Of a DNA stretch of 59,530 bases, positions 31,159 through 46,556 are shown piece after piece (the stretch's first letter is position 1; each line of letters begins with the position of its first letter). Under the pieces are notes generated by a model. It made no database searches. It was given only the letters and a program-made list of their open reading frames with translations, and was not told where the DNA came from. The DNA is from a virus (Duplodnaviria > Caudoviricetes): positions 1 to 59,530 of the IMG/VR virus record IMGVR_UViG_3300017739_000010; one strand, written 5' to 3'. The translations under genes and the position numbers were made by a program.

Positions 31159-34100
31159 ATGGCAAATATAAGTTTTCAACTTAATACTACAACTGGATTT
31201 TCTGATGCTGCCAGCGCGATAGCAAACTGGGGCACGGGAAGTGTAGTTACCGCGTGGGTAATTGACTCAGGCAGCGGGCAGGTTAGTGCAAATGACATCG
31301 TTTATCAAAATAACGATGGCGTACCTAACCAAAACGACGGTACTCTATCTAATCCATTCCAAGGGGGACTATATTATTATGCGTTTGAACAACTAGATGG
31401 TAGTATTGCTGCAGCACAAATAGATAATACCGGTTCAATATCTTCCTCGGTAATCACGACTACAACTACAAGCTCTACAACCGCGCCGGCTACTCCAACT
31501 TATACAATTCTTGTAACAGACGCGGCTGGTAACACGCCTTCTAATAACGAATTTAACGAGGGTGCTGTTGTAAATGTTACGATTCAAAGTGGTGGAGTAC
31601 TAGGTAATACACTTGACTACGCTGTAAGTGGCACTGCGACCGAGAATGATTTTACAGCAAACGGGTGGCCATTAGGAGTTGGCTTAACTCAGGGCACTCT
31701 TAATTTTGCGAATGCGGATACGGTACCTTTACAATTTACAATTTTAAATGATTTAAGTAGCTCTGAAGGCCCCGAGAATTTAATTATTACTTTAGATCCT
31801 CAAGATAATAACGGTAATAGTGCTGGACAAACAGTAACTATTAACATTCTAGATACAAGTGCAAACCAACCTCCAGCTTTAAGTGCAGTAACTGCCACAG
31901 TAACTCAAAATGGTACAGGAAATGATTTCGTAGATATTGATTTTTCTCAAGGTGCCGTTGACCCAGAGTCAGATCCTCTAACTTTTTATATTCAATCATT
32001 GCCATCTGGTGGTGGTACTCTTAGAGATCCACAGGCTCCAACTACAGATTTAACTACTAATGATTTACCATATCAAATTCAGAGTAGTGGATATGAAATA
32101 AGATATTACCCTGGTACAACTTTTGTTGGGGGTAATGCTGTTTTTAATTGGTATGCTGAAGATGGAATAAGTACTCAAAATGGAACCGCGTCAGCTACTG
32201 TAACTGTTAACGCTCCACAGAACCAAGCTCCGGTTGCTGCTAATGTCTCTCCAGCTGCTTTTCAAGCTGGAACTGTAGGCATACAAAAATTCTTTACCAG
32301 AAGCGCAACTGACGAAGATGTTTCTACATTAACTTTTAATTGGTCTGATGCTAATGGAACTACTCTATCTGGTGGATTAGCTGATATAAACCCTACTTTA
32401 TTGTATGGTCAGTTAACTCAGGCTTCTGGAGAAACTTTTCTTTATACAACAAACACTACACTCGGACCAAACGATCCAAGTGCATCAGAGACTTTATTTT
32501 ACTATACGGCTACTGATAGCCAAGGTGAAACATCAGCGGCTGCTCAAGTACAATTTCAATTATTGCCTCCTGGAAACGTGGCGCCATCTTTCGATGTAAC
32601 TCCACCAAGCACGCCAATACAAATTACTAATGGGGTTGCTTATATCCAACAAGGCATTACAGCAACGGACCCAGAAGGAAATACAGTAACTATTTCTGTA
32701 CAAAATGTTGGTGGTACTGATACTGGTGCTACAGCAACATTTAATGGTGGCAACTTAACCGTTACAGGTTCTAGCGCAGGTTCTGTTTCTGTAACTTTAA
32801 GGGCGACAGATCAATTTAGCGCTTTCGATGCTGCTAACGATATTACATACAACTTTACGACAGTGGCAGTTGCTTATAGAGGTGTTAGAAAATCTGCATT
32901 CTCAAACTCAGATACTGCTGCATGTTCTTTAGAAAGACCTGCTCAAGGATTTTACTATTATTCTACAGGTACTGGTGGAACTACATTCTTAAGTAATTTA
33001 GCCGCAGGTGCGTTCTTATACTCAGATACTGGTTTACAGAATAAAATTATCCCGAGTAGCGCTAGCTTCCCTTGGATTTCTGTAGAAGAGACAGTCGGTA
33101 ATACTCCCACGGTTAAAGCATTAAAATTAAATGCTAGTGATGGAGCAATAGAGGAGGTTTTAAACTGTACAGTTACTGGAGGTAATGCATGGCCTATCTT
33201 AGTTAGATATAGTCAAAATGCCACCGTATTCTGTGATGGTGTTTATGAAGAGACAGAAGCTTGGCAAAATATTGGTGAGACTGCAACTATAGTAGATGTT
33301 GTATCTGCAGGTGGTCAATTATTCTCATCAGAGTATTATGCGAATCAATACTTAAACAATAATGGCATTTATGCACCATCGTCTTTAATTTTATTAAATG
33401 GTGTTTATACACAAGATGGTGTTACAGATGTAGATGTAGAGAGAAATTATTTTAACTATTCAGGTGGTTGGACTGCGAACCCTGCACCATTACTTAACGA
33501 TCCAACCAACGATCCAAACGTGCTCGCGCAAGTAAATGGAATGTATGAATGTGCTCCTGATATTGTATACTCTACAAAATCTATTGATGTCTTCTGGAAC
33601 AGCTCGGAGCCAACTAATGTTAGCGCATTCTGTGCTCCTCAAAATGCTGTAGGCTGGAACACAAACAATCTAGGTAGTACTTATGATACTATTACTTTAT
33701 ATTACAGACAGGATGTAAATGATAGCACTAACTGGAATCTTTTAGATCTTGCAAAAAACCAAATATTGGTTTATATTTCTCAAACAGCGGCTGAAAACCA
33801 AGACTACAATTTAGTACAACCTAGTTCAGTTTTGTTATCTAACAACGGGGAAGGTTTCGTATTATTTGATAAAGATGATGATACAGGGTATTCAGGTTCA
33901 TATAGGTGGTACGCTTTCAGCCCAGATGATAATAACAATGCAACATTAGATAATTTATTAGAGGTTGCAGACAGTGGATCTGTTTACGGACAATGTGAAG
34001 ATCAGATAACTGGTCCTCTAGCAGATTATATTAGGCCTGAGGTTTGGAATATAAACACTAATAACCTTAATATAGTAATTGGAAACGAAGCAGGCTCAGT

Positions 34101-37100
34101 TTACTTTGCATTCTATGGATGTGACGTTAAATTAGATCCTGGAATTCCTGGAGGTGAGCCTTACTACCCAATGTATATTGTGGATGGTATGATAGAGAGA
34201 ATACAGCTTCTAGATGCTGGTACTTCATATATTAATACTTTTGTCCAAGCGATTACAAATAACACGTTAAACACAAGGGCTCAAGTTAAAGTAGGTGGAG
34301 AATGTTTAACTTACACAAATGCTATTGTAGCAACTAACATCGAAGATGCTGTCAACATCATGCAATCTGAGTTAGATTTAGTTGGTGGCGGGGATGTTGT
34401 AAGGGCTGTTTCTATTAATGCGGTAGACTTAGGTCTTGGAAGTGAAGCTGTAGTATCTTACAATCCTCACCCTATGTCGTTGAGCGGTCAACAAGATTTA
34501 ATATGCTACAATTGTAAAGCTAATTCTAATAATTGGGCTACTTATGAGTTTCCAATTATGGACGATGCTCAGATTTTAAATAGAACTTTACCTAATTTTA
34601 ATTTAGAAGAAAATTATATATTAGATAACGTATCTAAGCCTTTATTAAGAACAAACCCAAAATTATCAACAAATGCTAAAATTGTAGCTAATAGTACTGA
34701 TAAAATTTTCATAGAGTCTATTGATGCAACTAAAGAGTTGGCTTCTGTTGAGTATAAGAAGTGGGAGCTTAATCCAAATGGACAATACTCACAAGACTTA
34801 TATAAGTTTTACAAAAGTAGTTCCACTCCGGCGAGTATAATGTATGCTACAAGAGTTGATTCTTCAGATTTTGCTGTTCAAGAATCCTATGATAAACAAA
34901 TTGAAGAAGTTTATCATTATGGAACAACTTACAATTATTCCAAGCTACATAGTGAAGACCTTAGAATTTTAGCTCCTATTTGGTTAGATAAAGATATTCC
35001 TAAGAGATTTGTTGTATTTAGAGTAAACGACCCTGTAGGTGAAGCTGATTTTGATACAAGAGGTAGTTTTGATAACTTACAAGAGTTTTTAAAGAATTCT
35101 GAAATTGTTAAGACTTTTGATTTAACCACTAACTCTTCATTAGGTAAATATATTAGAAACCATGTAAACTCTGAGTCTTTCCCAAGAGGTCCAATACAGT
35201 TTAACTTTGAAAAGAGAGAAAAGAGTAATTTTAAAGGTATTGATTTAGAGAAGGGTGGATTTACGGCTAAGGGTGAATATTTACACAAAGATTTCGTTTA
35301 TACAGATGGTCCTTTAATTTCTGCTAATGCTACTATTACAGATGGCTTTGAAAGAAATAAATTAGCATGTGCAAACCTACTTAATTTAGAATTCTTGTTT
35401 GACGATAACAACGCTTCTGATTATTCTATTAATAGATATTTTGGTCTTTATGTAAACGATATTGACTCTGGCTATGGTAATCTTAGATCTGCAGAAAATG
35501 GTAATTTAATTTTTGAGTCATTAAACTCATATATTAATGAAGACCCAAAGTCTGCAATTCCTGCATTTAAACAAATATCTGATACTCCAACTTTGGGTTA
35601 CTTGTCAATTAGTGATGAGTTTTACAAAATATCCTCAAAGGCAAAATATGATGTAGATAAACTTAATTTAATCGTAGAAGATGGTGCTAATGCAATTCCA
35701 GCAGAAATTAAGACAGCTCCAAATGGAAAATCTATTGATATTGTCAAGAGAGATGATGCTGGTTTTGATTTTGTTAAAAGTACAATTACTAGAGCGCCCC
35801 AGGTAAATGATAGGTTTATCGTATTTGAGTCTAGAGAGTCTTCATACTCTATTAAATTCTTAAGGTTAATTCCTAATGAGACGTGGCAGCTCAAGCTGGT
35901 GATAGCTGGTAATGTAACAAACATAAATATAGCTACACAGGGAAGTATAGAAGCTACAGGTCTTGTGTTAAATGCCGCATTAGTTCAATATCCTAATATA
36001 AGCGCTTCTTGGGATGCTAATGCTAAAAAGATTTACATTACAGAGGTTAATGCTACTTTAGATGATTTACAGGTTGAATTTACTCCCGTAATACCACAGT
36101 CTTCAAGTACTGTTACTAAAGTTGAGCAGATTCAAACTTCTGTTAATCTAGATAATTCTACATTCTTTGCTACGTTTAGTTTACCTGCTGGAACTTTCAG
36201 CGGTCAACTATTCTCAGCACAAGGTACAAACTCTGAGATTGCAAAAGCAATAGCAGGTTGTATCAATAATAGTTCAATTAACTTTGATGTTGTAATAGCA
36301 GACGGTGCTTCAGAATTCTATATAAAATCTAAAATTGCAGGTTACAAGCTTCTACAATCCGGCGTTTTAGTCCCTAACGCTAACGCTGAAGATTTTATAT
36401 CCTTTGAAAACTTAGACGAGAGAACAACTCTAAACCCAAAGGGATTACTAGGGTTAGACAACAGTATAAGAACATTAAATTCCGTCCACTTTATGAGCGG
36501 CGGTAATTCTGGTGGTAAGTCTGTATTAGTGTCACAAGATTCAGTAGCTGATGTTGTGGTGGGAGATATGTTAGCAACCGGATCTGCCGGAACTTTCAAT
36601 ATGGTAATTGATATTGTTGATGATATTGCAACACCAAACACTATATACAAGAAATTAGTTTTAGATAAAGTAAATGTATTAGAAAGTGGAGAACAAAAAA
36701 TATATGCGGAGAACATTGCTAAATTAGGTTTATTCTCAGCTTATGATATTCATGATATGAACTTCGATTTCTATGATATATCAAACTCTGAGCTTAAAGA
36801 ATTAGAATATGAAACTTCTGCAAATATTAACTATGAGCCGGAAAGAAGTTCTACAAATACATTAGAGGTTTTCGGAACAGATTATGATATTCAAGATGTT
36901 TACAGCTACTTTACAGGTATTAGTGATACTCTACCCGAAGAAACATTAGATGCATACAACGAGGTTAAATTATTCAGCGAGTATGATAGGCTACAAGAAA
37001 ATAATATCAAAGAATTTGCTGTAAGATCTAGAACAGTTCCTAACATTAATAAATGGGTATTAAAAGATACTTTAACTGTAAGAGAACAACCATATTATTT

Positions 37101-39417
37101 AAACGCCAATGAAGCTTTTGGTAGAACTAATTTTTCACCAGACTTTAACGCGGTTGGTAGAGATAGGTTGGGCATGACGCATGAGTGGTTCTATATGGAC
37201 AACGTGCCTAAATATCTAAACTATAATCAGTTCAACAACACGTTTAGCTACGTTAATTTCTTAAATGATTTTAAATTAACACCTGAACATTTTAAAAGTA
37301 CTTCTTACAATTATTTTGATAGATTCATGATAACTGAAGGGTTTGAAACCAAAAACAATAACGGTTACTCTTCTTTTATTAAAACTAATCTTGAGAAAAA
37401 ATATACATTAGTTAATGGTGGTAATGATATTGCTTTTGCAAATACTGTTTTCAAAGGTATTAAAGTAGACTTTAAGAATAGAAAAGAGTTTTTAAATAAT
37501 AAAGCGACTGAATTTGTTAAATCATCTGAATTCAACGGCTATAAGTTTAGTACACTTGTGTTGGTAAGGAGTGGTAGTGAAACTAATTCGGTTGACTATG
37601 AGGTGATTCAAAATAAGAAGTTCAAATTTGTTGTATTTTTAATTACATTATCTATGGATGACTTATGGATTGATGGTGCTTTAAACAGAAAACTGTTGTA
37701 TGAGATGAATCATAGTTTCGTGTGGAATCATGAGACTCAAAATTTCTCATATTCAGATGTTAACCTAACAGGAGCATTAAATTTAAACGATATTAATTTT
37801 ACAGATCCATCTTCTAATGATTACAGGGTTGCAAAAGGAATTATACATAGTAACGGTGGAGAACCTCAATTCTTAGATCAGATTAATTCAGATGAAGATG
37901 ATAACTTTGGGTTCTTACAAATTAAAGTTTCTACTTCTAGTGGAGATGTTGTATTCAACTTAGAGATTGAATCTGTAGATGACCAGGACCAAATAACATT
38001 AGCTAGCGATCCTCAAGATATAAATGGCAATCCGGTTAATGTTTCTAACATAGCTGGTTACATTCAAAACAGCGCAGAGTATACTTACAAGGGTGGTGGA
38101 AAGAACGCATTTACGGCTATCTTAGACCAACTAGCTGTAGGTTCTGTTTCTAACTTGTTAAAGTTAAATGACGGAGAGATTACATATACTACCATTGAGG
38201 AAGATGGTCAAGCTGTAAACAACAGGTTCGAGATTGAATTTGAGAATGGAGTGGAGATAATTAAACAGTCTAGTTTATTGACTGTTGCGGATGAGGATAA
38301 ACCTAAGACTTTTAAATTAAAGCAAGGTGATATTGGCTACAATATAGTGTCCGGTGGAGCTTACTATCCATTCTTAATTAGACATAATGGGTATTACACA
38401 GTAGATACAATGCCTGTTGTAACCTTTACTGATACTTACTCACATTTTAAGACTAATACTCTTCAAACAACTTTAAACACTCAAGAGTTATCATTTGAAG
38501 AGCCTATGTATAAACACTCTTTAACTAGTGCAGAAGAAATTAAATTAGCTAGAGACTACTATAAGAGATATAACAGGTGTAAGACTGCATTTAATTTAGG
38601 CTTCATCCAAGATTATGGAGCACATGATGCTGCATGGGGTCTAATTAAAAATCACTTCTATAGAAAGGTAAATGAGTCTAATCCATCTGGTGTGACAAAA
38701 TTATCTACTTCTACTGATAAACTACCTCTTTACCCATTAATCGGTGAGGTTGCGATAGATAAAAAAGATGTAAATGTATTTAAGTCCTCTTGGGATAAAA
38801 ACTACTATACTAGGTCTTTATCTGGTGGATTAACAGAAGCAGTTCCAGGTACTTTTGAAACTAAAGAGGAAAGATCTTACTTAGGTTCAACTATTATGAA
38901 AGTAAAGGATAGCTATAGTATGATTAACTTTACTACTCAGACTGTAAAAACACAAGAGGAACAAGATTTAATTCTAGCTAACAATAATAATACAACAGAC
39001 GTTGTGGTATTTGAAGATGACAATAATGTATACATTGATTTTTACATTACTACAACTGTTAAAAAACTATTAAGCGATGATGGTGTTCTAAACTCTATTA
39101 ATGCGTTTGTATCTGCTGCAGATTCTGCTGGAGATAAAACAACAATAAAGGATGACGCTCTACTTTATGTGGAAAACAACCTACTCAACACGTTTAATTT
39201 AGACATGATAAAAATTTACACTAGCAGAGTGAAGGGTATTTCTTCAGAAATTCTATCTTCTGCTAACATTAACAATTTAGATGACGGTGGTTATATGAAT
39301 GACACAAACTTTACGTTTAAGTCACATGAACAAAAGCCCCTTAATTTTAGAATGATATATAATAAAAGATTAGGTTATTCTTATAGAATTAGACCTATGA
39401 TAAAAATAAAGTCATAA
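31159..39417 (+). CDS. giant virion protein: Calx-beta / cadherin-like Ig adhesin N-terminus plus structural C-terminus
   Basis: ILNDLSSSEGPENL (Calx-beta-like); NQPP/NQAP/NVAP..DPE cadherin-like repeats; Thr-rich linker. Confidence 0.7.
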   Translation: MANISFQLNTTTGFSDAASAIANWGTGSVVTAWVIDSGSGQVSANDIVYQNNDGVPNQNDGTLSNPFQGGLYYYAFEQLDGSIAAAQIDNTGSISSSVITTTTTSSTTAPATPTYTILVTDAAGNTPSNNEFNEGAVVNVTIQSGGVLGNTLDYAVSGTATENDFTANGWPLGVGLTQGTLNFANADTVPLQFTILNDLSSSEGPENLIITLDPQDNNGNSAGQTVTINILDTSANQPPALSAVTATVTQNGTGNDFVDIDFSQGAVDPESDPLTFYIQSLPSGGGTLRDPQAPTTDLTTNDLPYQIQSSGYEIRYYPGTTFVGGNAVFNWYAEDGISTQNGTASATVTVNAPQNQAPVAANVSPAAFQAGTVGIQKFFTRSATDEDVSTLTFNWSDANGTTLSGGLADINPTLLYGQLTQASGETFLYTTNTTLGPNDPSASETLFYYTATDSQGETSAAAQVQFQLLPPGNVAPSFDVTPPSTPIQITNGVAYIQQGITATDPEGNTVTISVQNVGGTDTGATATFNGGNLTVTGSSAGSVSVTLRATDQFSAFDAANDITYNFTTVAVAYRGVRKSAFSNSDTAACSLERPAQGFYYYSTGTGGTTFLSNLAAGAFLYSDTGLQNKIIPSSASFPWISVEETVGNTPTVKALKLNASDGAIEEVLNCTVTGGNAWPILVRYSQNATVFCDGVYEETEAWQNIGETATIVDVVSAGGQLFSSEYYANQYLNNNGIYAPSSLILLNGVYTQDGVTDVDVERNYFNYSGGWTANPAPLLNDPTNDPNVLAQVNGMYECAPDIVYSTKSIDVFWNSSEPTNVSAFCAPQNAVGWNTNNLGSTYDTITLYYRQDVNDSTNWNLLDLAKNQILVYISQTAAENQDYNLVQPSSVLLSNNGEGFVLFDKDDDTGYSGSYRWYAFSPDDNNNATLDNLLEVADSGSVYGQCEDQITGPLADYIRPEVWNINTNNLNIVIGNEAGSVYFAFYGCDVKLDPGIPGGEPYYPMYIVDGMIERIQLLDAGTSYINTFVQAITNNTLNTRAQVKVGGECLTYTNAIVATNIEDAVNIMQSELDLVGGGDVVRAVSINAVDLGLGSEAVVSYNPHPMSLSGQQDLICYNCKANSNNWATYEFPIMDDAQILNRTLPNFNLEENYILDNVSKPLLRTNPKLSTNAKIVANSTDKIFIESIDATKELASVEYKKWELNPNGQYSQDLYKFYKSSSTPASIMYATRVDSSDFAVQESYDKQIEEVYHYGTTYNYSKLHSEDLRILAPIWLDKDIPKRFVVFRVNDPVGEADFDTRGSFDNLQEFLKNSEIVKTFDLTTNSSLGKYIRNHVNSESFPRGPIQFNFEKREKSNFKGIDLEKGGFTAKGEYLHKDFVYTDGPLISANATITDGFERNKLACANLLNLEFLFDDNNASDYSINRYFGLYVNDIDSGYGNLRSAENGNLIFESLNSYINEDPKSAIPAFKQISDTPTLGYLSISDEFYKISSKAKYDVDKLNLIVEDGANAIPAEIKTAPNGKSIDIVKRDDAGFDFVKSTITRAPQVNDRFIVFESRESSYSIKFLRLIPNETWQLKLVIAGNVTNINIATQGSIEATGLVLNAALVQYPNISASWDANAKKIYITEVNATLDDLQVEFTPVIPQSSSTVTKVEQIQTSVNLDNSTFFATFSLPAGTFSGQLFSAQGTNSEIAKAIAGCINNSSINFDVVIADGASEFYIKSKIAGYKLLQSGVLVPNANAEDFISFENLDERTTLNPKGLLGLDNSIRTLNSVHFMSGGNSGGKSVLVSQDSVADVVVGDMLATGSAGTFNMVIDIVDDIATPNTIYKKLVLDKVNVLESGEQKIYAENIAKLGLFSAYDIHDMNFDFYDISNSELKELEYETSANINYEPERSSTNTLEVFGTDYDIQDVYSYFTGISDTLPEETLDAYNEVKLFSEYDRLQENNIKEFAVRSRTVPNINKWVLKDTLTVREQPYYLNANEAFGRTNFSPDFNAVGRDRLGMTHEWFYMDNVPKYLNYNQFNNTFSYVNFLNDFKLTPEHFKSTSYNYFDRFMITEGFETKNNNGYSSFIKTNLEKKYTLVNGGNDIAFANTVFKGIKVDFKNRKEFLNNKATEFVKSSEFNGYKFSTLVLVRSGSETNSVDYEVIQNKKFKFVVFLITLSMDDLWIDGALNRKLLYEMNHSFVWNHETQNFSYSDVNLTGALNLNDINFTDPSSNDYRVAKGIIHSNGGEPQFLDQINSDEDDNFGFLQIKVSTSSGDVVFNLEIESVDDQDQITLASDPQDINGNPVNVSNIAGYIQNSAEYTYKGGGKNAFTAILDQLAVGSVSNLLKLNDGEITYTTIEEDGQAVNNRFEIEFENGVEIIKQSSLLTVADEDKPKTFKLKQGDIGYNIVSGGAYYPFLIRHNGYYTVDTMPVVTFTDTYSHFKTNTLQTTLNTQELSFEEPMYKHSLTSAEEIKLARDYYKRYNRCKTAFNLGFIQDYGAHDAAWGLIKNHFYRKVNESNPSGVTKLSTSTDKLPLYPLIGEVAIDKKDVNVFKSSWDKNYYTRSLSGGLTEAVPGTFETKEERSYLGSTIMKVKDSYSMINFTTQTVKTQEEQDLILANNNNTTDVVVFEDDNNVYIDFYITTTVKKLLSDDGVLNSINAFVSAADSAGDKTTIKDDALLYVENNLLNTFNLDMIKIYTSRVKGISSEILSSANINNLDDGGYMNDTNFTFKSHEQKPLNFRMIYNKRLGYSYRIRPMIKIKS
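39354..39362 (+). promoter_or_regulatory. late-promoter-like GATATATAA
   Basis: Within the 3' end of the upstream gene, 67 nt before ATG 39421. Confidence 0.5.
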
Positions 39418-44902: not shown

Positions 44903-45574
44903 TTGAATTTAGTAACAGTCGACTTCTCTCTTAATTCCCCTGGTATTTGTATTTGGACTTCCAACACAAATGAATATCACTTTGTCTCATATCTTAAAGC
45001 TGGTACAGGTACAAAAGCAGAACAAAAACGTCAAGAAGAAATTTCAACATTCTCAGACGTAACTTTATTCCATCAACCAGATTGGAAAACAAAATTTGGT
45101 GATTACTCCAAGAACGAATTTGCAAAAATTAAGAGATATAGAGAGATGGCTTCAGATCTCATATCTGAAATAGTTAATATAGTAGGTACAACAAAAGATT
45201 ATTATATTGCTTTCGAAGGTTCGTCTTACGGATCTAAGATGGGAACAAACAACATTATTGATATGGCAGCAGGAGCTGCAATCTTAAAAAATCAAATGAT
45301 GGAATTGCTTTGCGTCGAAGAAATTCTAACGGTCGCTCCAACTACAATTAAGAAACATGCAGGAAAAGGGAATATGAATAAAGCCGCTCTTTGGACTGCC
45401 TTCTTAAACAATGTTTGTGAATCTCCTTTGTTAGCTAACAGTCCTCTATATAAGTATTGTGTTTCTGAAATTGGTGAGGTGAAAAAAGTTCCGAAACCTT
45501 TCGATGACCTAGTTGATGCATGGTTTCTTAATCATTACCTCTACACTCAACTCGAGGGAAATTTGCCAGACTGA
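44903..45574 (+). CDS. ruvC: RuvC-like Holliday junction resolvase (likely TTG start at 44903)
   Basis: VDFSLNSPG, AFEGSSY, PTTIKK..GKGN..K, DDLVDA. Confidence 0.8.
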   Translation: MNLVTVDFSLNSPGICIWTSNTNEYHFVSYLKAGTGTKAEQKRQEEISTFSDVTLFHQPDWKTKFGDYSKNEFAKIKRYREMASDLISEIVNIVGTTKDYYIAFEGSSYGSKMGTNNIIDMAAGAAILKNQMMELLCVEEILTVAPTTIKKHAGKGNMNKAALWTAFLNNVCESPLLANSPLYKYCVSEIGEVKKVPKPFDDLVDAWFLNHYLYTQLEGNLPD

Positions 45575-45645
45575 CCAAATCTCTGCTTTCAAGCCTCTTC
45601 TGGCTAGTCTCTGCTTCCGGAACTACTCTTCCCCTGAGGTTAAAT
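45547..45645 (-). ncRNA. candidate structured small RNA
   Basis: About 51% GC; closing stem plus two internal stems; upstream GAAAC-N18-TATAA; no ORF. Confidence 0.45.
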
Positions 45646-45652
45646 ACATAAC

Positions 45653-45680
45653 TTATATGCTAGTTCCCAGAAAAGGTTTC
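45653..45680 (-). promoter_or_regulatory. GAAAC-N18-TATAA promoter-like motif, minus strand
   Basis: GTTTC 45676-45680 and TTATA 45653-45657 on the plus strand. Confidence 0.5.
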
Positions 45681-45704
45681 AAAAAACTTCAGTAAATCTC
45701 AAAT

Positions 45705-45863
45705 TTAACTCTGATGAGCTAACATTAGGCTAATCCTAGTAGGGATAACGACCTTAGCATTACAGCTATCACAGCACTTTCCTTTGTTGACAACAGGAGC
45801 AGGATTATTGCCGTACTGACCCTTGATTAATTTGCCACAAATAACACACTTAAAATCTTTCAT
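45705..45863 (-). CDS. 52-aa zinc-finger protein (early island 2)
   Basis: CVIC...GNNP.P...CCDSC; ATG follows the upstream stop. Confidence 0.8.
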   Translation of the reverse strand: MKDFKCVICGKLIKGQYGNNPAPVVNKGKCCDSCNAKVVIPTRISLMLAHQS

Positions 45864-45864
45864 A

Positions 45865-46164
45865 TTAGCAGTATGAGTTAATTTTGTCCATTTCTTCTTT
45901 CCAATGTTTTGCAACATTTTTAGAAAATTGCTCTTCAGGGTGATTAAATGCATACCAAAGGTCTTGGATGTTAATTGGACCGGCTCCACCGATCTCGTTA
46001 TCAATCCACTCACAGAACGTGTAGAGCGAGTCTGACTCATTAATGTATAAACTTTCATAGATATAGTCAAAACCATCTAGAAAGCTTCCAGTGGTCTTAG
46101 CCCCCATTAAAAGGAGGTCTTTATTTTTTTCTGATAAATTTAACTTTGTATTCATAATTTCCAT
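45865..46164 (-). CDS. hypothetical protein (early island 2)
   Basis: Directly downstream of promoter cassette copy 2; start 46164 or 46155. Confidence 0.8.
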   Translation of the reverse strand: MEIMNTKLNLSEKNKDLLLMGAKTTGSFLDGFDYIYESLYINESDSLYTFCEWIDNEIGGAGPINIQDLWYAFNHPEEQFSKNVAKHWKEEMDKINSYC

Positions 46165-46246
46165 TTGTTTTTAATTACAGTACTAATATACGAAAAATAT
46201 CTGACATAAAAAAATCTAGAGGCAACTATTTTGCAAAAAATGGCAA
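46164..46246 (-). promoter_or_regulatory. conserved early-promoter cassette, copy 2
   Basis: Matches 14968-15050 with no indels. Confidence 0.8.
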
Positions 46247-46279
46247 CTTTTTACAAAAAAGATATTAACATATTATGCA

Positions 46280-46306
46280 GAAACAAATTAAAAAAGAGAT
46301 ATATAA
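46280..46306 (+). promoter_or_regulatory. GAAAC-N17-TATAA overlapping a GATATATAA motif
   Basis: GAAAC at 46280, GATATATAA 46298-46306. Confidence 0.5.
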
Positions 46307-46335
46307 TATGTATAATAAACAAAAAGTACAGTGAT

Positions 46336-46530
46336 ATGTTGATAACAGCGGATTACTTTCGTCTCAGCGAAATCCTAAATAAAATGGTGGCAGCGAACCA
46401 GATCACGACTATAGAGCGTGAGGAGTTACTCCACAAATCAGGGCTGATTAAGCTAGAGGACGGCAGATGGAAGGAAACACCCACAGACCCAAGGTCTGGG
46501 ATCTCTCCAGCTATTTTGACATTAGACTGA
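46336..46530 (+). CDS. 64-aa hypothetical protein
   Basis: ATG downstream of the promoter; the longer TTG start runs through regulatory DNA. Confidence 0.65.
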   Translation: MLITADYFRLSEILNKMVAANQITTIEREELLHKSGLIKLEDGRWKETPTDPRSGISPAILTLD

Positions 46531-46556
46531 AACTATTGATTATTGTACAACTATAA
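46529..46556 (+). promoter_or_regulatory. GAAAC-N18-TATAA upstream of the SSB gene
   Basis: GAAAC at 46529, TATAA at 46552. Confidence 0.55.

Follow-up and report, generated by a model that had tools for sequence, protein, structure and literature searches.

What does a conserved, apparently gene-free element do at the point where the late genes of a phage give way to its replication genes, and is it read as RNA or as DNA? To our knowledge, almost nothing is known of the regulatory and replication signals of uncultured large-genome marine phages. The element considered here lies in a stretch of 59,530 nt (hereafter the window), a 59.5-kb fragment from an IMG/VR virus record with an estimated completeness of 21%; related metagenome contigs, identified through their RuvC-like genes, reach 185–255 kb. 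A DNA search against cultured phages returned only two weak matches of 87–121 nt, both to Chryseobacterium phages and both outside the element. A preliminary description had proposed that the locus encodes a promoter-driven, GC-rich, structured RNA antisense to the 3' end of the RuvC-like gene.

The element sits between the stop codon of a RuvC-like resolvase gene and a small convergent minus-strand gene (45705–45866). The resolvase gene (44903–45574, plus strand; stop codon TGA at 45572–45574) matches phrog_159 (E 3e-12), and its protein matches phage genes annotated as RuvC-like resolvases at 25–34% identity in tblastn, the best match being 34%. On the ORF map, it is the final gene of a structural or late-looking plus-strand block of ~30 kb; the plus strand carries all long genes between ~15 kb and 45.5 kb, and nearly all of those across the whole window. 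A single ORF of 2752 aa (31159–39417, plus strand) lies within this block. On the far side are a gp32-like SSB gene (plus strand, ~1 kb beyond the element; PF08804, E 6.6e-19) and, beyond it, a primase gene (phrog_47, E 1.9e-26). A small gene precedes SSB in every relative readable that far. It is listed in the window as a 99-aa ORF (46231–46530, plus strand), but its true start is likely 46337 (MLITADY...), because the longer frame encloses a promoter-like site and no relative aligns before 46337.

The convergent gene at 45705–45866, which encodes a 53-aa zinc-ribbon-like protein (CxxC...CxxC), and a second minus-strand gene of 99 aa (45865–46164) are both upstream of the element's promoter. 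They are inserted between two back-to-back promoters and are present, absent or swapped across relatives. As they are found in only some relatives, these genes can be placed outside the element, and they resemble accessory cargo. A functional link between either of them and the element was rejected, since both are missing from a number of repeat-bearing loci.

The element was delimited by comparison with related phages. A search with the RuvC-like protein identified 47 IMG/VR loci at 75–92% identity, and an alignment of nine RuvC proteins, used as the query, identified 216 metagenome-contig relatives, of which the best 80 (59–95% identity) were used, giving a comparison set of 127 related phage loci. 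The RuvC stop codon could be read in 122 of these and in the window, for a total of 123 places. Just past RuvC, 117 of the 123 carry GAAAC...TATAA on the minus strand, while four others are cut by contig ends, so that the motif is present in 117 of the 119 loci readable at that position. The two exceptions are L125, which has GAAAC-N18-TAGAAT, and L012, which has a decayed GGAAC-N18-TACAAG. After removal of identical copies, the 117 motif-bearing places reduce to 68 distinct versions, which fall into about five length classes. When searched for with a degenerate pattern, the promoter block turned up in 44 viral contigs, one copy each, and all of them were already in the RuvC list, which ties the element to the RuvC-like gene and its lineage. 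The exact 26-nt word of the window had no match in the viral collection.

Based on the alignments of relatives, the whole conserved element spans 45547–45683 on the minus strand and consists of a promoter, a leader, two repeat units, a terminal inverted repeat and a tail. Its far boundary was set where RuvC synonymous diversity falls to ~0, in the last 8 codons, and the element extends 24 nt into the RuvC reading frame. The promoter comprises a -35-like box, TTGAAAC (45676–45682, minus strand), and a -10-like box, TATAAG (45652–45657, minus strand), with GAAAC and TATAA invariant in 68 of 68 distinct versions. A conserved leader, UAUUUAACCUCAGGGGAAGAGUAGUU (45619–45646, minus strand), is followed by repeat unit 1, GGAAGCAGAGACUAGC (45603–45618), and repeat unit 2, the last, GAAAGCAGAGAUUUGG (45575–45590), both on the minus strand and both conserved in relatives. 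The terminal inverted repeat, GCAGAGAUU-UGGUC-AGUCUGGC (45565–45586, minus strand; 5 pairs plus 2), spans the RuvC stop codon, and the tail, AAAUUUCCCUCGAGUUG (45548–45564, minus strand), is complementary to the final RuvC codons (QLEGNL).

The sequence statements of the preliminary description all hold. The stretch 45551–45640 contains 46 G or C in 90 nt (51.1%), which places it in the top 0.5% of 90-nt windows against a window mean of 34.7%; the word AAGCAGAGA occurs at 45616–45608 and again at 45588–45580, 28 nt apart; and GAAAC-N18-TATAA, at 45680–45653 on the minus strand, does point into the element. It is their conservation in relatives that lifts the promoter-like motif, the repeat and the GC-rich block above chance.

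Is the motif a promoter? Its two boxes are separated by exactly 18 nt in all 68 distinct versions, in a search that permitted a range of spacings, and the sequence of this 18-nt spacer is wholly different between clades. Invariant boxes at an invariant distance around a clade-variable spacer form a promoter pattern, rather than that of a structured RNA or a coding remnant. In sigma-70-type promoters, the start position follows the -10 box by a fixed rule, and by this rule transcription would start at 45643–45647 on the minus strand, 5–9 nt past the -10 box. The spacing is long for sigma-70, at 19 nt with TTGAAA as the -35 hexamer. The motif is also retained in RuvC relatives of 59–67% identity that lack the repeats. 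In these, only ~25–30 nt separate it from the RuvC stop codon, and ~40 nt of A+T-rich DNA from the replication-module promoter, to which it stands back to back.

Other sites of the same kind occur in the window. GAAAC-N16-20-TATAA is found four times, against 2.2 expected by chance, and all four sites fall in intergenic DNA, which makes up 2.7% of the window. One is the element's own site (45653–45680, minus strand), which has no ORF to serve. The other three are on the plus strand, at 531–557, at 46280–46306 (GAAAC-N17-TATAA, serving the small conserved gene with its likely start at 46337, after which comes SSB) and at 46529–46556, and they stand 27–60 nt ahead of ORF 584, the 46337 gene and the SSB gene, respectively. 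Such sites look like a promoter class of this phage lineage, and the consensus GAAAC-N16-18-TATAA may be usable to annotate early or middle transcription units within it. The claim that the element is promoter-driven is thereby strengthened: judged from conservation and context, it is well supported that a conserved, predicted promoter of prereplicative class at the end of the late block points in the antisense direction.

What would such a promoter transcribe? As previously described, the only ORF behind it has 8 codons (MYLTSGEE*, within the leader). A small protein from this ORF was rejected, given that the frame is not kept and the start is absent in several clades; element lengths (80–156 nt) also vary by steps not divisible by 3. 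A 16-codon frame with a UUG start antisense to RuvC, seen by eye, was likewise discarded, as it has no conserved start and RuvC synonymous variation is normal over its upstream half. With no minus-strand ORF downstream of the promoter, the product would be a non-coding transcript, and its position bears out the claim that it would be antisense to the RuvC 3' end.

These observations suggest a role in antisense regulation, which is the most economical of the roles proposed in the preliminary description, the others being those of a protein decoy and an antitoxin mimic. A promoter of the phage's early or middle class, the type that also stands before SSB, lies directly behind the last gene of the late block and would fire backwards, producing a transcript that would be complementary to the RuvC-like message over its last codons and 3' untranslated end. 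In the clade of the window, the first 80–156 nt of this transcript would form a purine- and G-rich, weakly folded module. Made early, and acting much as OOP RNA does on cII, the RNA could anneal to the late RuvC/structural transcript at its 3' end and expose it to double-strand-specific cleavage, or could interfere with convergent transcription, while the repeat units would be read by a partner through their sequence rather than a fixed fold. The production of this RNA, its end point and its action are all things that we infer, and the account as a whole, a lambda OOP-like antisense transcript from an early or middle promoter that carries a sequence-read repeat module, is put forward as a plausible but tentative reading, somewhat short of an even chance.

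The preliminary description had instead envisaged a discrete RNA of ~100 nt folded into a three-way junction. All 25 of the base pairs that it named can form on the minus strand, but the junction itself is not borne out. The minimum free energy of a 111-nt stretch on the minus strand is -29.5 kcal/mol, compared with -25.7 +/- 3.7 for shuffled sequences (z -1.04; 29 of 200 shuffles fold as well), and the plus strand gives an equal z of -1.06. Averaged over 47 distinct versions, z is -0.02 for the minus strand and -0.03 for the plus strand, and most versions of 135–138 nt fold worse than their shuffles (z +1 to +2.6). The proposed junction, at -19.3 kcal/mol, lies 10 kcal/mol above the best fold, and the mean pair probabilities within it are 0.14 and 0.16 for the inner stems and 0.66 for the outer stem. 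The minus strand has the lower fold energy in 30 of 30 versions; this was rejected as a means of calling the functional strand, because z is equal for both strands and the difference reflects G+U content rather than structure.

Comparative evidence points the same way. RNAalifold found no compensatory changes at any of 27 pairs in 15 sequences of the 128–130-nt class (covariation term -0.6 kcal/mol) or at any of 36 pairs in 14 sequences of the 144–147-nt class (-0.1 kcal/mol), and the consensus folds differ between the two classes. When the three-way junction was imposed on nine relatives, 85% of cells were paired, but none of the 25 pairs had changed on both sides, pairs were broken in up to six of the nine, the GCCAGA arm was deleted in three, and every measure equalled that of shuffles. 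Four further helices proposed by eye scored 0.057, compared with 0.054 for shuffles. The best-kept possible hairpin is the terminal inverted repeat, with 94% of cells paired and no pair changed on both sides; it varies one-sidedly (C-G to U-G, G-C to G-U, with some breaks). One-sided changes in the possible helices mostly yield G-U on the minus strand, a post hoc observation that is not significant. The power to detect covariation is low, as there are only 68 distinct versions and those within each class are closely similar. A fixed fold for the element is not supported. Nor was a terminator-like site that could produce a discrete ~100-nt RNA found on the minus strand between 44500 and 46700, where the terminal hairpin is followed by AAAUUU(U) without a direct U-tract.

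The element does appear to be undescribed, as had been claimed. Rfam 15 returned nothing at gathering score in the window, with chance-level matches only (E 6–9.5) at 45300–45950, and nothing on the element in eight relatives; a tRNA or tmRNA was rejected, with 0 genes called by ARAGORN.

If the fold is not what is conserved, then what is? The clearest candidate is the repeat module, which consists of 1–4 copies of RRGCAGAGAYUWGG (47 distinct versions) at unit spacings of 15, 18, 19, 27–30, 37–39 or 55 nt. It is present in 89 of 91 readable loci with a RuvC identity of at least 74% and in none of 30 readable loci with an identity of at most 67%. In the module-bearing clade, 80–156 nt separate the promoter leader from RuvC. 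The last unit is able to pair with the RuvC stop region (AGAYU/AGUCU), and next to it lies the nearly invariant tail. The two loci above the identity threshold that lack the module are again L012 (3624–3695) and L125, which have a RuvC identity of 76–81%, no repeats and a different RuvC tail. Both may have lost the module naturally, which would make them convenient controls.

The module may have an origin in its own leader. Part of the leader reads AGGGGAAGAGUAG in the window (45635–45623) and GAGGAAAGAUUAG in repeat-less relatives, and both resemble a degenerate repeat unit; MAFFT also places the class A leader onto the repeat unit. The likeness and this placement suggest that the module grew through duplication of the leader word. 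In another locus (L097:2140–2255, minus strand), the leader reads ...CAAGGGCAGAGUAG, a hybrid of leader word and repeat unit that fits an origin of the unit by leader duplication.

The element also appears to have left its mark on the protein that it overlaps. Synonymous diversity in RuvC is 0 in six of the last eight codons, compared with 0.3–0.4 in the gene body, and this freezing of the nucleotide sequence is confined to the repeat-bearing clade, being absent from repeat-less relatives. RuvC-like proteins share a core ending in ...DDLVDA(W/Y)FL, followed by clade-specific tails of 6–13 residues (L137–L171 included). In the clade of the window, the tail is QLEGNLPD or QLGENLPD (45548–45571 in the window), and it is the overlapping element that holds its nucleotide sequence constant. 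Since the codons are frozen only where repeats are present and the tails differ between clades, the last eight RuvC codons look like a translated part of the element rather than a constrained protein tail.

This degree of conservation is more than antisense pairing would require, as complementarity alone would not freeze a sequence, and the letter-perfect repeats are therefore left unexplained by it. One alternative is a trans-acting sponge, in which accessible RRGCAGAGAYUWGG units sequester either an RNA-binding protein, from host or phage, or an RNA complementary to them, much like the protein decoy suggested in the preliminary description. A nearly letter-perfect motif in 1–4 copies with variable spacers, folds no more stable than shuffles or less so, no covariation and a predicted promoter of the module's own are all as expected of such an RNA. 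However, the complement of the unit has only one other occurrence on the plus strand of the window, within an ORF, and the unit has no counterpart among the genomes of 185,579 species (one genome each), where the pattern GGCTKRARGCAGAGAYTWGG matched 19 scattered loci, one match each, which is about the chance level by our estimate. The link between the last unit and the RuvC stop region would also be superfluous in a free-standing sponge, and a sponge thus appears quite unlikely. The 19 matches came without arrays, a second unit, the promoter or the tail, and at this stringency a cellular counterpart, or mimicry of a CRISPR repeat (an RNA anti-CRISPR), was rejected. Within the window, the extended unit is unique to this locus, and for this reason a general phage promoter or terminator motif was also rejected.

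Composition provides a further line of evidence, which can be read in more than one way. On the minus strand, the module has 59% purine and a G-C skew of +0.30 (47 versions), where only 1% of minus-strand 80-nt windows attain 60% purine, and the excess of G over C extends to the module spacers (G 0.33, C 0.18). Viewed from the plus strand, the 78 nt from 45560 contain 26 C and 12 G, which ranks in the top 0.18% of windows; their 17 YC dimers, where the mean is 4.9, rank in the top 0.06%. The composition data fit either strand, and it is the predicted promoter that argues for the minus strand as the functional one.

Read on the minus strand, this composition raises the prospect of a transcript-primed replication origin. 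A G- and purine-rich RNA could stay on its C-rich template as an R-loop and prime DNA synthesis as at T4 oriF and oriG, with the repeats either stabilising the hybrid or binding an initiator, a role that has been suggested for the 12-nt iterons of T4 oriE. According to passages in PMC3016281, minimal oriF and oriG each combine a middle-mode promoter with an unwinding element downstream of it, oriE carries direct repeats of 12 nt and requires an early promoter, and active T4 origins sit at switches of the transcribed strand. The present locus shares a promoter class with the adjacent replication genes (SSB, then primase), its promoter serves no ORF, and in repeat-less relatives this promoter lies back to back with that of the replication module across the ~40 nt of A+T-rich DNA; the RNA-like strand is skewed as described and folds no better than shuffles, or worse. 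On the other hand, the downstream element of T4 is A+T-rich, whereas the corresponding stretch here has 47–51% GC (top 0.5% of the window), and the units are unevenly spaced (15–55 nt) in a way that iterons are not. G-C skew along the window does not change sign at 45.6 kb, and its differences track gene modules, and the repeat-less relatives have no skewed stretch at all. On balance, an origin at this site seems unlikely.

Read on the plus strand, the same composition resembles that of rut sites, which are C-over-G, YC-rich, unstructured stretches of ~80 nt. The module could then be a Rho-loading region that ends the long late operon past the RuvC stop codon, with the backward promoter merely a separate neighbour. 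The C excess and YC dimers in the 78-nt stretch, its lack of structure (mean z ~0), its beginning at a stop codon, the lack of an intrinsic terminator after RuvC and a copy number that varies as that of a composition-driven element would are consistent with this. Yet units of 12–14 nt and a 26-nt block are kept while RuvC synonymous sites vary freely, and we know of no rut sites with near-invariant sequence. The repeat-less relatives also do without the module. Rho loading is accordingly regarded as an improbable explanation.

Sequencing runs speak neither for nor against the predicted transcript. A search of runs identified 14 DNA runs containing at least half of the sampled words and six RNA-library runs containing small shares. 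Four RNA-library runs, two of them oligo-dT, yielded 2–4 contig records each, without strand information. Two 151-nt RNA-library records on the element (45569–45719 and 45609–45759) cross the proposed promoter and may be DNA carry-over.

A final possibility is that the element acts only as DNA, with the direct repeats and the AGACT-N5-AGTCT inverted repeat binding a phage DNA-binding protein, either a regulator of the adjacent promoter or one that acts at a packaging or partition site. Direct repeats of 12–14 bp do adjoin the promoter, an inverted repeat lies at the RuvC stop codon, and there is no RNA fold signal. However, the repeats are not helically phased (15, 18, 19, 27–30, 37–39 and 55 bp), and the strand-asymmetric composition runs through the spacers, which a double-stranded binding site would not need. 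The tendency of one-sided helix changes to give G-U on the minus strand points weakly, and post hoc, in the same direction. A site recognised solely as DNA is thus considered very improbable.

In summary, the locus carries an element that comparison of relatives shows to be real and that is undescribed and sharply bounded, and its promoter and antisense geometry are supported. A more ambitious view is that it represents a new kind of phage non-coding RNA, in which a purine-rich word of 12–14 nt gains and loses copies by duplication to form an unfolded platform read by sequence, serving either as a sponge that titrates some factor of host or phage early in infection or as the G-rich arm of a replication-starting R-loop, and has overprinted the C-terminal tail of a resolvase; this is a doubtful but not negligible prospect. 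If an origin or a sponge proved true, this lineage would gain its first defined signal of the kind, while an antisense promoter with a composition-driven spacer would add only modestly to the known phage antisense transcripts. In either case, the locus gives a sharply bounded non-coding element at the border of the late and replication modules, and what appears to be a protein tail dictated by an overlapping non-coding element.

How, then, does the element compare with known systems? It recalls nut/boxA leaders in that the predicted transcript opens, at its very 5' end, with a conserved UCUUUAAC-like word, after which small hairpins could form. A boxA/nut leader was nevertheless rejected, since GYTCTTTAANA was matched at only 6 of 10 specified positions in the window and 7 of 10 in the best relatives (144–147-nt class). 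The boxA of suhB is described in a passage of PMC5725501 as inactivated by a joint C4T/T6C change; the window, unlike suhB, has A rather than C at boxA position 4. Similarly, the element shares with rut regions a YC-rich, unstructured composition with C over G across ~80 nt right after the last stop codon of an operon, but differs in its strong conservation, its repeat architecture and the placement of this property on the strand opposite the conserved promoter.

The likeness to the T4 origins oriF, oriG and oriE is broader, as it includes a predicted promoter of prereplicative type, a transcript that would have no coding role and a position beside recombination and replication genes at a strand switch, as well as, for oriE, direct repeats of ~12 nt. 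Unlike at oriF and oriG, the stretch downstream of the promoter is G+C-rich rather than A+T-rich. Compared with iteron origins, both oriE and those of plasmids, the repeats are unevenly spaced, number 1–4 and are missing in some relatives.

The closest parallel for the antisense reading is OOP RNA of phage lambda. According to a passage in PMC5869508, this RNA starts at pO, runs convergently to cII and shares an overlap of 52 bases with the 3' end of that gene. OOP and the element have no similarity in sequence. OOP has a defined hairpin terminator, whereas none was seen for the element on the minus strand between 44500 and 46700, and OOP lacks a repeat module. While OOP overlaps the 3' end of cII, the element's overlap with conserved RuvC sequence is minimal, given that the last eight codons look like translated element. 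The resemblance is instead one of arrangement: like the lambda pO-oop-tO unit, the element would have its own promoter, in this case a predicted one, and would give rise to a non-coding transcript convergent to the 3' end of a gene and beside the replication genes.
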